Virus record (IMG/VR): IMGVR_UViG_3300042524_000214
Span: 38,663-102,662 of that record
Source: a virus
Lineage: Duplodnaviria; Heunggongvirae; Uroviricota; Caudoviricetes
Direction: 5' to 3' (one strand)
DNA length: 64,000 nucleotides
The notes under the pieces were generated by a model. It had not been told where the DNA came from, searched no databases, and was given only the letters and a program-made list of their open reading frames with translations. This document shows, one piece after another, positions 2,412 through 38,738 of this stretch. A program made the translations under genes and the position numbers. The stretch's first letter is position 1, and each line of letters begins with the position of its first letter.

Positions 2412-2487
2412 TGCTTTGTAGCTCAGTTGGTTAGAGCCAGCATCTACTGGATGCACAGGGTCGGAGGTTCGAGTCCTCTCAAAGTAA
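2412..2487 (+). tRNA. tRNA with atypical anticodon arm (apparent anticodon ACU, 7-nt variable loop); isotype uncertain
   Basis: Acceptor TGCTTTG/CAAAGTA, D-arm GCTC-AGTTGGTTA-GAGC, T-arm GGAGG-TTCGAGT-CCTCT. Anticodon stem AGCAT/ATGCA has an A-A mismatch and loop CTACTGG. Confidence 0.6.
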
Positions 2488-2500
2488 CAAAACTTATATT

Positions 2501-31597: not shown

Positions 31598-32410
31598 ATG
31601 AAGAAATTTTCAGGGTTATTTTTAGTGTTAGTATTCGCAGTGTTTATGACATCATGTGAAAGAGTTGCTCCAAACTATTATGGAGTATTAATGGAAAATT
31701 ATGGTAAGAATGGGAAAGATGACTATACCAAACAACAAGGTAGAGTAACCACATTATCACCGGGGACAGAGTTATTTCAAGTACCGGCTTGGGAGCAAAG
31801 AGGTCAATTTACCGATGATGAGGGGCAAGACAGAGTATTGCAAGTAAAAGCAGCTGATAACACAGCATTTACGTCAAAACCTTTATATTCATACAAAGTA
31901 ATGGAAAACCGAGTTGTAGATGTAGTCTTTCAAAATTCAAGATTAGGTTCGGGAGATGATTTTATGACAGCTTTACAAGATAATGTATTAGAGCCAAGAA
32001 TTTACGATATTATTAAAGAGGCTTCAAGAAGTTATACAACAGAACAATTAATGGCAAACGGAGGTTCGCTGAAGTTTGAGCAATACGTTCAAGATATAGT
32101 TACGAAAGAGTTTGAAAAGTCAGGATTACAATTAGTGAGTTTCAGTTTAAATCTAGATTTCTCTAGCAAAGTAAAAGCTAAGATTGATAGTCGTAATGAA
32201 GTTAACACAAATATATCTGTATTAGACCAAGAGATTGCCGAACAAAAGAAGAAAAACGAATTAGAGGTATTAAAAGCTGAGCAAAACAAAATTAGAAGTG
32301 CCGGTATTACTCCTCAGTTGTTACAAGAGCAAGCAATACGTAAATGGAATGGTCAATTACCAACAACAGTTTCAGGTGGTACTATCCCCTTTGTTAAGAC
32401 AGTAAACTAA
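31598..32410 (+). CDS. SPFH/band-7 domain lipoprotein
   Basis: Lipobox-like LVFAVFMTSC; body resembles stomatin/HflK-type SPFH domain followed by a charged coiled coil (VLDQEIAEQKKKNELEVLKAEQNKIRS). Confidence 0.5.
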   Translation: MKKFSGLFLVLVFAVFMTSCERVAPNYYGVLMENYGKNGKDDYTKQQGRVTTLSPGTELFQVPAWEQRGQFTDDEGQDRVLQVKAADNTAFTSKPLYSYKVMENRVVDVVFQNSRLGSGDDFMTALQDNVLEPRIYDIIKEASRSYTTEQLMANGGSLKFEQYVQDIVTKEFEKSGLQLVSFSLNLDFSSKVKAKIDSRNEVNTNISVLDQEIAEQKKKNELEVLKAEQNKIRSAGITPQLLQEQAIRKWNGQLPTTVSGGTIPFVKTVN

Positions 32411-32790
32411 CCTTTCATAGTCGAATTGTGAGTTTAAAACTGACTAGAGTGATACAAAACATAACCTGTACCCCCGAAAAACTCGTATTAGCAACCACGA
32501 AAGTGTAGTCCCCTGATAGTATCAGTGGTAGTTGTAAGATAAGCAGGTTATCCCGATATAAAGGGGTAGTAGAATAGGGGAAATGTGGTCTTACATCCAC
32601 TTGAAACTTGTAAGATTGGTCTCTGATGTTAGGGAACGCTTGTGAGTGGCAGGGAATAAGAACTCTCATTTATAGTAGAAACAACATCTCCCCAGTTTCT
32701 TGTGGTGTGCACACCGAGGATTTATAAGGAGGTTGAGACCGAGTGACGTTAGCCTTTTGTAACTCGGCAATAAACAGAAAAAGGCAACTT

Positions 32791-32864
32791 GGTTCGGTAG
32801 CTCAGTTGGATAGAGCAACAGATTTCTAATCTGTAGGTCGTAGGTTCGAGCCCTACCCGAATCA
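32791..32864 (+). tRNA. tRNA-Arg (anticodon TCT)
   Basis: Acceptor GGTTCGG/CCGAATC, D-arm GCTC-AGTTGGATA-GAGC, anticodon arm ACAGA-TTTCTAA-TCTGT, T-arm GTAGG-TTCGAGC-CCTAC; 74 nt, no encoded CCA. Confidence 0.9.
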
Positions 32865-32990
32865 CGATTGTTGGAACCTCTCGTATGAAAGAAGAACGCT
32901 AACCCAATGTTCCTGTCGGGTTAGACCTAGCATCAAGGACTTGGCAAGTTTTCGGTAGCCGAGCAGATGTAACCGATGACACTGGGAAAG

Positions 32991-33074
32991 ACTAGAATAT
33001 TGCGGAGTAGTCAGTAGATGGAAGCTTGTGAGGCTCATAACCTCATGTCGAAAGACCCCGTTGGTTCGAGTCCA
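32991..33074 (+). ncRNA. tRNA-like element with CAU anticodon arm and long variable arm; possible pseudo-tRNA
   Basis: Anticodon arm TGAGG-CTCATAA-CCTCA; variable hairpin GTC-GAAA-GAC; T-arm GTTGG-TTCGAGT-CCAAC; acceptor TGCGGAG/CTCCGCT with a T1-T72 mismatch. No canonical D-arm found. Confidence 0.35.
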
Positions 33075-33106
33075 ACCTCCGCTACGAAATAGTTTGTTGA
33101 TGTGTT

Positions 33107-33142
33107 AGTGAATTTTGTTTGGACGGGGGTTCGACTCCCCCC
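33107..33142 (+). ncRNA. tmRNA-like T-arm plus 3' acceptor strand (candidate acceptor piece of a permuted tmRNA)
   Basis: GTTTGGACGGGGGTTCGACTCCCCCCACCTCCA-CAA closely resembles tmRNA 3' ends (B. subtilis GTTTGGACGCGGGTTCGACTCCCGCCGTCTCCACCA). Confidence 0.45.
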
Positions 33143-33241
33143 ACCTCCACAAGAGTTTCCTTGAACTATAAACAAGGTGGTGGAGTCGCTGATTATCAGA
33201 TGACCTAGGCTTTATCGGTTGTGCCTCGAACAACTGAACAT

Positions 33242-33385
33242 GGGGGTGCTTGGTTTTGACAGCAATTTAGTAGGTAGCAAGGAGAACGAATTTCAAAAAT
33301 AAACGACAACGTTTACCAACTTGGTGGCGTACAGCTTAGAGCTGTAGCGTAATCACGCTCTAGGGGGAGCGAAATCCCCCTAAAT
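33242..33385 (+). ncRNA. candidate tmRNA coding piece
   Basis: 5' acceptor strand GGGGGTG pairs with the upstream CACCTCC giving a G3-U70 pair. D-loop analogue GGTTTTGAC (tmRNA consensus GGATTCGAC). Short stop-terminated frame ...NDNVYQLGGVQLRAVA-TAA at 33278-33352. Confidence 0.35.
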
Positions 33386-33459
33386 GTCCTAGTAGCTCAG
33401 TTGGTTAGAGCAGCTGACTCATAATCAGCAGGTCACAGGTTCGAGCCCTGTCTAGGACA
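33386..33459 (+). tRNA. tRNA-Met (anticodon CAT; could be elongator Met or Ile-lysidine)
   Basis: Acceptor GTCCTAG/CTAGGAC, D-arm GCTC-AGTTGGTTA-GAGC, anticodon arm GCTGA-CTCATAA-TCAGC, T-arm ACAGG-TTCGAGC-CCTGT; 74 nt. Confidence 0.9.
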
Positions 33460-33714
33460 CTTAGCAAGGCATAAACGATAAGGAAAAGCTGTCACAGGTT
33501 TATGTTAAGTTGCAGACAGACCGAAATGCTTACGGTTAACGGGGCTAACTCATATAGTCCAGAGAGCAAAATCTAACGAGTGACTGATGGAAAGACATCA
33601 ACATGGAAAGAGTAGTAGTTGAGGTCGCTCCAAAAGCTACGAGTGGGATTAACGATGACTTAGTATTACTGCCCGATATTCTAGATAAGGCTTGGTAAGT
33701 GATTAAGTATGTAG

Positions 33715-33750
33715 TTAACACCGGGGGTTCGATTCCTCCCTCTTTTACAA
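33715..33750 (+). ncRNA. isolated tRNA-like T-arm plus 3' acceptor strand (3' fragment or 3' half of a split/intron-containing tRNA)
   Basis: GGGGG-TTCGATT-CCTCC followed by CTCTTTT-A; a complementary 5' strand GAAAGAG lies at 33606-33612, but no canonical cloverleaf in between. Confidence 0.3.
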
Positions 33751-33760
33751 ATTAGTTAGT

Positions 33761-34345
33761 ATGAAAAAATTAGAATTAAAAGTTCTTCTGAAAGAACAAG
33801 AGGAGAGTCTACAAGAGTTAGAATATGGTTATACCAAACTAGAAGAGTATATAGCTATAAGAAAACAAATTGGAGAGTTGCAAGACAAAGGTAGAGCTAT
33901 TGAGAGAAAGTGGTATGATGAAAACCAAGAATCTGCTAGAAGTTGTAGAGCCGAAATACGTGAGTATAAGGAACTGATTGACTACAAAGGACATCTTAAC
34001 CCTAAGAACTACTGCCAGGCTGTCCAAGACTGCTACAATGCTTATTTTAGAGGTACTACTTCTTATCGTTGGAGACAACTTGTTTGGGTTTCAGATGACC
34101 AAAGATATTGTGTCTTAAAAATGCCTTCACATAGTGAGTACACAGATAGAATGTCCGGTGTTGTATCTAGTCCCTCAGAGTGGGTATTAGTGGAATGTTC
34201 TATTTTTAAGAACGATAGAAATGTACTAGTATACCACAATACTCCCGGAGTATTGCTAAAAAGAGATGGTGGAAGATGGAGTAAAAGATTTGAACAAGAA
34301 ATTTTAGAAATAATTAACAAGCACGAAAATGAACGACCTATTTAA
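33761..34345 (+). CDS. hypothetical protein
   Basis: 194 aa; junction ACAAATTAGTTAGTATG at start. Confidence 0.5.
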   Translation: MKKLELKVLLKEQEESLQELEYGYTKLEEYIAIRKQIGELQDKGRAIERKWYDENQESARSCRAEIREYKELIDYKGHLNPKNYCQAVQDCYNAYFRGTTSYRWRQLVWVSDDQRYCVLKMPSHSEYTDRMSGVVSSPSEWVLVECSIFKNDRNVLVYHNTPGVLLKRDGGRWSKRFEQEILEIINKHENERPI

Positions 34346-38535: not shown

Positions 38536-38738
38536 AAAATTTAGTATTGATTTTTATGGGGGTTTTAGTAATGTCTTGCTCCTCAGTTGAAGAAAGAATA
38601 AAAGATTACTCTTATACAGATGAGTGGCACTATGTAAACACCGAAAGGTACCAATTGTATAAAACAAAAGCCGGTAAAAAGTACATCATAGTGCTTAACA
38701 ATAGACAAACTAATTTTAAACGTAAATACATTAACTAG
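38532..38738 (+). CDS. small lipoprotein
   Basis: MKNLVLIFMGVLVMSCSS lipobox-type signal. Confidence 0.45.
   Translation: MKNLVLIFMGVLVMSCSSVEERIKDYSYTDEWHYVNTERYQLYKTKAGKKYIIVLNNRQTNFKRKYIN

Follow-up and report, generated by a model that had tools for sequence, protein, structure and literature searches.

The locus analysed here raises the question of whether the sequence between two tRNA genes of a large phage encodes a transfer-messenger RNA (tmRNA) and, if so, in which form. It is located in a stretch of 64,000 nucleotides (nt) of IMG/VR record IMGVR_UViG_3300042524_000214 (positions 38,663 to 102,662), hereafter termed the window. An earlier reading of the same DNA (the original prediction) had proposed a phage-encoded, circularly permuted two-piece tmRNA carrying the G3·U70 alanine identity pair, and this core is upheld: region 33086-33385 very probably represents a functional ssrA gene, circularly permuted and belonging to a large phage, whose two-piece tmRNA would be expressed from a tRNA-cluster precursor.

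Both dedicated detectors named in the original prediction recognize the element above their thresholds. ARAGORN calls a permuted tmRNA at 33058-33443 with the tag DNVYQLGGVQLRAVA*, and the Rfam model of permuted tmRNA, RF04321, matches 33092-33352 end to end with 57.3 bits against a gathering score of 47 (E = 1.7e-8 over the whole window). The gene is organized in the predicted order, with the acceptor (3') piece preceding a spacer and the coding (5') piece (Table 1). As likewise foreseen, GGGGGTG at 33242-33248 pairs with CACCTCC (33142-33148) over 7 base pairs (bp) including G3·U70, and is followed by the D-loop analogue CTTGGTTTTGAC; the gene possesses this analogue without a D-stem, together with a TΨC-type T-loop. 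The 33-nt string GTTTGGACGGGGGTTCGACTCCCCCCACCTCCA, part of the acceptor piece, is present at 33117-33149, its formerly assigned position (33107-33139) being 10 nt too low. Folding the two pieces together yields a structure of -71.7 kcal/mol (z = -3.6 versus shuffles) with a 7-bp acceptor stem containing G3·U70, a T-arm and a long interrupted P2 helix, i.e., the tRNA-like domain and the P2 pairing that had been proposed for a joint fold. Since the RF04321 match lies above its cut-off, ARAGORN returns the same tag, the co-fold stands apart from shuffles and covariation is found in eight sequences, these sequence elements and scores are far beyond chance.

Homologues of the tmRNA were retrieved by BLAST and pattern scans (L021, L033, L022, L097, L098, L095 and L154, plus the partial L150). 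The window and seven homologues provide eight distinct sequences from IMG/VR and one metagenome, with identities of 76-83 %. A whole-locus MAFFT alignment placed the acceptor 5' strand of L097 and L098 one column off, and hence the acceptor and coding pieces were joined without the spacer (alignment A4) for RNAalifold and pair counts. Given A4, RNAalifold arrived independently at the T-arm, the acceptor stem and a P2 in three segments, compensatory changes occurring at 16 pairs. In an explicit structure of 58 pairs, 97.6 % of the cells across the eight sequences are paired as compared to 39-49 % in controls with partners slid by 1-3 columns; double-sided changes occur at 17 of the 58 pairs versus 0-2 in the slid controls, and none of 500 shuffles attained the observed pairing values. 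The G3·U70 pair is kept in all eight sequences, and the acceptor stem of L095 contains a compensatory exchange of G5-C68 for A-U. Covariation extends to three of the five T-stem pairs and to the P2 helix linking the pieces (20 pairs in three segments, five with double-sided changes). Downstream of the stop codon a hairpin is well supported, three of its pairs showing compensatory changes, and CGC could pair with GCG of the hairpin loop to form a candidate H-type pseudoknot, the weakly supported stem of which has just 3 bp and one compensatory event (C-G to U-A in L097 and L098). This post-stop element would be a candidate equivalent of pseudoknot 2 (PK2).

The complete and covarying gene has to be weighed against an attachment site (attP), in which the 3' fragment would equal the 3' end of a host ssrA for integration of a temperate phage and the coding piece would be fortuitous. 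According to passages in PMC4383910 and PMC9004378, integration often targets tmRNA genes, and 3' fragments of ssrA occur in phages; moreover, the 29-nt core of T-arm and acceptor strand is the same in many unrelated tmRNAs. However, the present gene has both pieces, linked by covariation, and a tag frame under selection, no integrase domain was detected by a Pfam scan of the about 100 open reading frames (ORFs) of the window, and the phage group looks lytic and crAss-like. A search of 185,579 species genomes of bacteria and archaea gave no exact match to the 33-nt string, so that the identity with a host ssrA 3' end, by which the original prediction would have recognized an attP core, was not found. 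An attP relic was rejected on these grounds (complete covarying gene, no integrase, no genome match of the string), and its probability is practically negligible.

The coding piece specifies the tag DNVYQLGGVQLRAVA, followed by a stop codon. A stop-terminated frame had been predicted, and its end, ...NDNVYQLGGVQLRAVA with TAA at 33350-33352, proved correct, but its start did not: the resume codon is GAC 33305, and the preceding N lies outside the tag. The resume codon of the homologues keeps its position and reads GAC (D), GCT (A) or GGA (G). Five codons (Y, G, V, Q and the final A) differ at the third position only and synonymously, two copies carry an in-frame deletion of 3 nt, and each of the eight copies ends with Ala-TAA. 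In some copies stops interrupt both other frames; the tag frame stays open in each of the eight despite a nucleotide divergence of 17-24 %. By this substitution pattern the tag frame behaves as coding sequence under purifying selection. The upstream context in the window, AAA-AUA-AAC/GAC (the slash marking the resume point), resembles that of Escherichia coli tmRNA, AAA-AUA-GUC/GCA.

Selection on the tag bears on the alternative of a non-tagging tmRNA mimic, a decoy that would titrate host SmpB, alanyl-tRNA synthetase (AlaRS) or EF-Tu, or block host trans-translation. A molecule consisting of the tRNA-like domain (TLD) only strongly inhibits tmRNA (Hudson et al. 2014, PMC4131195), and such a role has been proposed for the TLD-only tmRNA of mycobacteriophage DS6A. 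The window RNA is devoid of pseudoknot 1 (PK1), the window encodes no SmpB, and a second, tag-less tRNA-shaped RNA is located 220 nt downstream, all of which would suit a decoy. A pure decoy, however, needs no tag, resume context or Ala end, and therefore the conservation of the tag at the amino-acid level with synonymous substitutions, the preserved resume context and the C-terminus that is always Ala-stop argue against it, leaving the decoy an unlikely explanation. Lower still is the probability of a decaying remnant of a rearranged tmRNA gene, recognizable to the models and non-functional. Consistent with a remnant, the locus is a rearrangement hot spot, where sister phages have a one-piece tmRNA, tRNAs or nothing, ARAGORN gives no call for the L022 copy, and L096-L098 have an aberrant T-loop. 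Yet every helix stays paired via compensatory changes, the tag is intact throughout at the divergence given above, and the junctions with the flanking tRNAs are conserved to the nucleotide. With stems and frame preserved at a divergence of about 20 %, a pseudogene was rejected.

Table 1 Features of the two-piece tmRNA gene and its flanking tRNA genes (positions in the window; evidence where given)
Feature	Position	Strand	Evidence
tRNA-Arg	32791-32865		
tRNA-like gene, anticodon CAT, 85 nt, long variable arm	33001-33085	+	ARAGORN; Rfam tRNA 33.7 bits vs cut-off 29
Acceptor piece of tmRNA	33086-33149	+	RF04321 alignment, co-fold, RNAalifold, pair counts
P2 3' strands, acceptor piece	33086-33121	+	Compensatory changes in all three P2 segments
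GAC, acceptor piece	33122-33124	+	
T-stem	33125-33129 with 33137-33141	+	Compensatory changes
T-loop TTCGACT (T-arm GGGGG-TTCGACT-CCCCC)	33130-33136	+	
Acceptor 3' strand CACCTCC	33142-33148	+	Compensatory changes in acceptor stem
Discriminator A (A73)	33149	+	
Spacer (intervening segment), 92 nt	33150-33241	+	Alignments A2, A3
Coding piece	33242-33385	+	ARAGORN, Rfam, co-fold, covariation
Acceptor 5' strand GGGGGTG	33242-33248	+	
D-loop analogue CTTGGTTTTGA	33249-33259	+	
P2 5' strands	about 33260-33294	+	
Resume context AAAAATAAAC (also given as AAAAAUAAAC)	just upstream of resume codon 33305	+	
Tag reading frame: GAC 33305-33307, 15 codons, TAA 33350-33352	33305-33352	+	
Structured 3' element after stop codon: hairpin GGGGG/CCCCC (hairpin at 33363-33381)	33354-33381	+	
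tRNA-Met (CAT)	33386-33460	+	ARAGORN; Rfam 74.2 bits

How the two RNAs might be formed is suggested by the surrounding tRNA cluster, which had been postulated and is real (Arg, CAT tRNA and Met; Table 1). In the window, tRNA genes abut both ends of the tmRNA gene (33085/33086 and 33385/33386). The coding piece ends 0-1 nt before the tRNA-Met gene in all eight sequences, and a T-arm-like tRNA 3' end is located directly 5' of GAAAT in most homologues, L095 excepted. The upstream 'tRNA-Met' (33001-33085) is atypical, having an apparent U1-U72 mismatch and a low Rfam tRNA score.

In the model proposed here, the gene would be transcribed within the tRNA-cluster precursor, from which tRNA-processing enzymes would cut out two RNAs. 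As the upstream tRNA 3' end adjoins the acceptor piece, 3' maturation of this tRNA would give the 64-nt acceptor piece its 5' end. Trimming of the acceptor piece to A33149 would fall to a 3' endonuclease or exonuclease, and the host CCA-adding enzyme would add CCA, which is not encoded after this discriminator base (the bases there are CAA). Cleavage by RNase P before G33242 would generate the 5' end of the coding piece and release the 92-nt spacer, and RNase P cleavage before tRNA-Met at 33386 would define the 3' end of the 144-nt coding piece. Held together by the 7-bp acceptor stem and the roughly 20-bp, three-segment P2, the pieces would assemble an alanine-accepting tRNA-like domain (G3·U70, A73), to be charged by host AlaRS and carried to stalled ribosomes by host SmpB and EF-Tu. 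Translation would resume at GAC 33305, appending A-DNVYQLGGVQLRAVA, an Ala-ending tag of the degradation type; the presumed benefit for the phage would be that ribosomes are kept free while mRNAs are damaged or degraded in infection. The Pfam scan revealed no SmpB or CCA-adding enzyme among the about 100 window ORFs, and therefore charging, SmpB/EF-Tu delivery and CCA addition would have to be host functions. The window does encode an Rv2179c-like 3'-5' exoribonuclease, an RNase T-like exonuclease and an RNA ligase. A sigma-70 promoter scan found no promoter, a result that is uninformative for this host group.

A PK1, expected in the original prediction, is not present: the covariation-supported P2 reaches 33294 and leaves 10 nt before the resume codon, so that no PK1 is formed between the two. 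PK1 is typical of one-piece as well as two-piece tmRNAs, the latter typically having PK1 before the tag and PK2 after it (PMC3985003). Since PK1 is typical and not universal, its absence marks a variant and does not exclude membership among the two-piece tmRNAs; the lineage shows that a tmRNA can apparently dispense with PK1.

The relation of the permuted gene to the standard form can be traced among sister phages. The band-7 gene (31598-32410) just upstream of the RNA cluster retrieved 73 related IMG/VR phage loci, and the band-7 protein is 80-91 % identical among close relatives carrying either tmRNA form. A two-piece gene occupies the locus in L021, L022 and L033, and a one-piece tmRNA the same locus in L024, L026, L027, L028 and L032 (also L003 and L005); the band-7 protein of the one-piece sisters is 80-87 % identical to that of the window. 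The one-piece genes share with the window gene the tRNA-like domain, both inner-P2 strands and a counterpart of a conserved spacer block described below, but differ in their standard order, in having PK1 and further pseudoknots, and in their longer tags (e.g., ANAQIEANMNKVFSLLREEVAVAA). The profile of the acceptor piece aligns to the sister one-piece genes from position 16 as compared to 28-35 for unrelated tmRNAs, and the first 38 nt of the sister genes align with the permuted P2 5' strand; by these alignments, the kinship of the two gene forms extends past the tRNA-like domain common to all tmRNAs. Permuted or one-piece tmRNAs also occur on numerous further IMG/VR phage contigs. The region following band-7 (L020-L092) is a hypervariable island of RNA genes: in some phages it contains a tmRNA, either two-piece or one-piece, in others an array of up to 8-13 tRNAs, and in still others no RNA gene was called.

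Only a few origins of tmRNA permutation are generally assumed, in alpha- and betaproteobacteria and in cyanobacteria, the alpha form having been inherited by mitochondria. To our knowledge, work on the mechanism of permutation has lacked close pairs of one-piece and two-piece genes. As close phages carry either form at one locus and share modules, permutation or recombinational replacement becomes directly testable by comparative genomics.

The spacer provides a further link between the two forms. Positions 33153-33186 (34 nt) are invariant in all eight sequences, exceeding the conservation of the tmRNA itself, and the 3' part of the spacer is variable. The conserved block, designated X', extends over 33154-33209 and consists of the hairpin CCTTG-AACTATAAA-CAAGG, TGGTGGAGTCG, the hairpin CTGA/TCAG and GACCTA. 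As read from the sequence, TGGTGGA of X' is exactly complementary to UCCACCA, the mature 3' end, and GTGGAG (33181-33186) can pair with CTCCAC (33145-33150) in the CCA-less precursor. In the sister one-piece tmRNAs the counterpart, block X (hairpin, TGGTGGA(T)TCG, hairpin, GACCC), occupies the interval from the tag to the P2 3' strand, where the Rfam alignment has the last pseudoknot (PK4), whereas X' of the window follows the acceptor end. A covariance model (R1) built from X' of the permuted genes only gave individually marginal matches (E = 0.017-0.36), seven of the nine best of which fall at one position in seven one-piece genes, with two decoys scoring similarly; plain local alignment of X' with one-piece tmRNAs is marginal as well (z = 3-5.7). 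Homology of X and X' is thus argued from the consistent position and not from any single score.

A simple tandem duplication as the route to permutation was rejected, since the order predicted by it differs from the observed Y-T-A3-X'-A5...tag. The X' block could hold the place of the acceptor strand during transcription, guide processing, or be a module moved by recombination between the gene forms. More specifically, but with considerable doubt, the window gene may belong to a fourth, phage-borne two-piece lineage that shares ancestry, and has exchanged or interconverted its form, with the one-piece genes of the same phage group, X' then being a relocated PK4-type module serving maturation, or a third RNA.

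Several points weigh against the view of the locus as a functional two-piece tmRNA. As only eight sequences from few sub-lineages are at hand, the compensatory changes represent few independent events. L096-L098 possess a non-canonical T-loop, GGCAGAG versus TTCGAnT, and the window tag ends with AVA rather than the canonical LAA, so that protease recognition is uncertain. The spacer block is more conserved than the tmRNA, for which the simple picture of a discarded spacer does not account. Expression and processing are proposals from sequence, the ribosome geometry of an RNA without the otherwise typical PK1 is an assumption, and so is the fit to SmpB and AlaRS of a host that is itself a probable assignment.

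In L096-L098 the D-loop analogue is altered too (TAGTATTGA), stems and tag being intact, which may reflect a coupled change of the tertiary contact between T-loop and D-loop.

The window represents phage DNA, encoding GroEL, RNR, ThyX, PolA, DnaB and a virion protein of 1,908 amino acids. The closest cultured relatives of the latter are from Cellulophaga phages phi4:1 and phi17:2 (28.8 % identity over 94 % of the length), followed by crAss-like phages, and the phage is distantly related to both groups. On account of these relatives, of the resemblance of the band-7 gene to those of Bacteroides and Phocaeicola phages, and of a G+C content of 32-39 %, a host from the Bacteroidota is likely; the original prediction of a Bacteroidetes phage holds to this extent, as a probable assignment. 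A blastn comparison with 50,697 phage records, using 7 kb as well as the 300-nt tmRNA region, returned only T-arm and tRNA matches and no close relative, and the downstream ORF 33761-34345 as query retrieved no related loci. A metagenome scan with a 23-mer of the spacer added one locus (L154). No match to a 27-mer of the spacer was obtained in a scan of bacterial genomes, the host being identified neither by this nor by the 33-mer, and a search for contigs encoding the band-7 protein returned only a contig of 837 nt with no gene context.

Next to the tmRNA gene, several further RNA elements were observed. A conserved tRNA-shaped RNA of about 145 nt (33606-33750, + strand), received no call by ARAGORN or Rfam. 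Its acceptor stem is GAAAGAG/CTCTTTT with discriminator A; U8-A9 is present, the D-stem GTAG/CTAC carries a loop of 18 nt, the central arm is long (about 80 nt), a variable loop is missing, and the T-arm reads GGGGG-TTCGATT-CCTCC. Of its 40 predicted pairs 11 show compensatory changes (five homologues), and G3·U70 is absent except in L033. This RNA takes the place held in L027 by a complete one-piece tmRNA. Within the window, and apart from itself, it matches the acceptor piece of the tmRNA best (E = 0.002), and its T-arm plus U-rich strand scores as a terminator-like site. By analogy with mycobacteriophage DS6A, it may be a TLD-only tmRNA derivative. Element E (33461-33600, + strand; 140 nt, ORF-free) is 88-95 % identical in seven distinct related loci; it follows tRNA-Met in the window, lies between a tRNA and the one-piece tmRNA in L027, has no Rfam family match, and may be a leader or small RNA. 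Segments 32411-32790 (380 nt) and 32866-33000 (135 nt), both on the + strand, contain no convincing ORF and received no Rfam or ARAGORN call; parts of the former are shared with L021 and L033.

Elsewhere in the window, an unusual tRNA-Ser with anticodon ACT was called at 2412-2488 (+ strand). Among related or otherwise retrieved phage contigs, suppressor-type tRNAs were called with anticodons TTA ('Stop'; L037 4808-4885) and CTA ('Pyl'; L145 7693-7766 and L153 2184-2257), which hints at stop-codon recoding in some of these phages.

The original prediction took a permuted tmRNA in a Bacteroidetes phage to be undescribed, which is wrong as regards annotation and phages at large. Two-piece phage tmRNAs are published: they occur in the OM43 phage Melnitz and other marine phages, and 53 of 133 unique phage tmRNAs are two-piece (Buchholz et al. 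2022, PMC9004378). A tmRNA database of 2025 comprises 79 phage sequences (PMC11915505). Furthermore, the tmRNAs annotated in GenBank for Maribacter phage Panino (PP540027), Chryseobacterium phage MA9V-3 (PV245944) and crAss-like cr10_1 (MT774382) are permuted according to ARAGORN and RF04321, and those annotated for cr7_1 and cr124_1 show the same T-arm match. The records for Panino, where the gene is labelled 'transfer-messenger RNA SsrA', and for MA9V-3 are automatic annotations, and literature searches found no paper analysing the permuted form of Bacteroidota phages. The bare observation of a phage with a permuted tmRNA is therefore ordinary, as routine annotation pipelines find such genes; new are the PK1-less lineage, the tRNA genes at both ends, the alternating gene forms in close relatives and the invariant spacer module. 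Among bacterial genes, Bacteroidota tmRNAs amount to 24,380 standard versus 48 permuted instances (PMC11915505 Supp. Table 2), and for this reason the phage gene does not represent a recent host copy. As nearly all hosts have the one-piece form, the phage RNA has to cooperate with a heterologous SmpB of the host or act against it.

Panino and MA9V-3, both with hosts from the Flavobacteriia, are the nearest points of comparison. The coding piece of Panino is collinear with that of the window over its full length (nhmmer profile, E = 7e-6), MA9V-3 matches the window-clade profile marginally (E = 0.015), and this profile yields no match to cr10_1. Like the window gene, that of Panino has a short distance from P2 to the resume codon, and thus no PK1, and tRNAs abut both of its ends; its post-stop element CACGTCCGAGGGAACGACATCCCTC is nearly identical to that of the window, and a collinear element is also present in MA9V-3. 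At the position of tRNA-Met in the window, Panino has a tRNA-Thr and cr10_1 a tRNA. Panino differs from the window in its tag (GKVMNVSFAPTVRQFA) and in a spacer of about 39 nt without X', a block that is not present in MA9V-3 either. Since both phages are in culture, experiments are feasible. In cr10_1, the tmRNA spacer contains an extra T-arm-like hairpin (AGAGGTTCGACTCCTCT), and a RAGATH-9 RNA (L019 128-306; 97 bits vs cut-off 75.2) is located about 1.2 kb upstream of the permuted tmRNA.

Bacterial two-piece tmRNAs, found in Alphaproteobacteria (Caulobacter), Betaproteobacteria and Cyanobacteria, were reportedly described by Keiler in 2000 and by Sharkady and Williams in 2004. They agree with the window gene in the order of acceptor piece, spacer and coding piece, in the tRNA-like domain formed in trans, in G3·U70, in the Ala-ending tag, and in the expected processing by tRNA enzymes. 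Differences are the typical possession of PK1 and PK2 by the bacterial forms, which are reviewed in PMC3985003 and whose Rfam families RF01849, RF01850 and RF01851 were merged as RF04321, versus a window gene devoid of PK1 with tRNA genes setting its outer ends. None of the alpha, beta and cyano subtype models fits the window gene: the best match, to beta_tmRNA, reaches 37.5 bits versus 84 and covers model positions 81-162 of 331, and two lower-scoring overlapping matches of the same clan, presumably alpha and cyano, were suppressed by the tool. The Melnitz gene, finally, resembles that of the window as a permuted ssrA encoded by a phage in which no integrase was found, but it belongs to the alphaproteobacterial type and has a glutamine riboswitch linked to it, whereas the window gene represents a different lineage, that of Bacteroidota phages.

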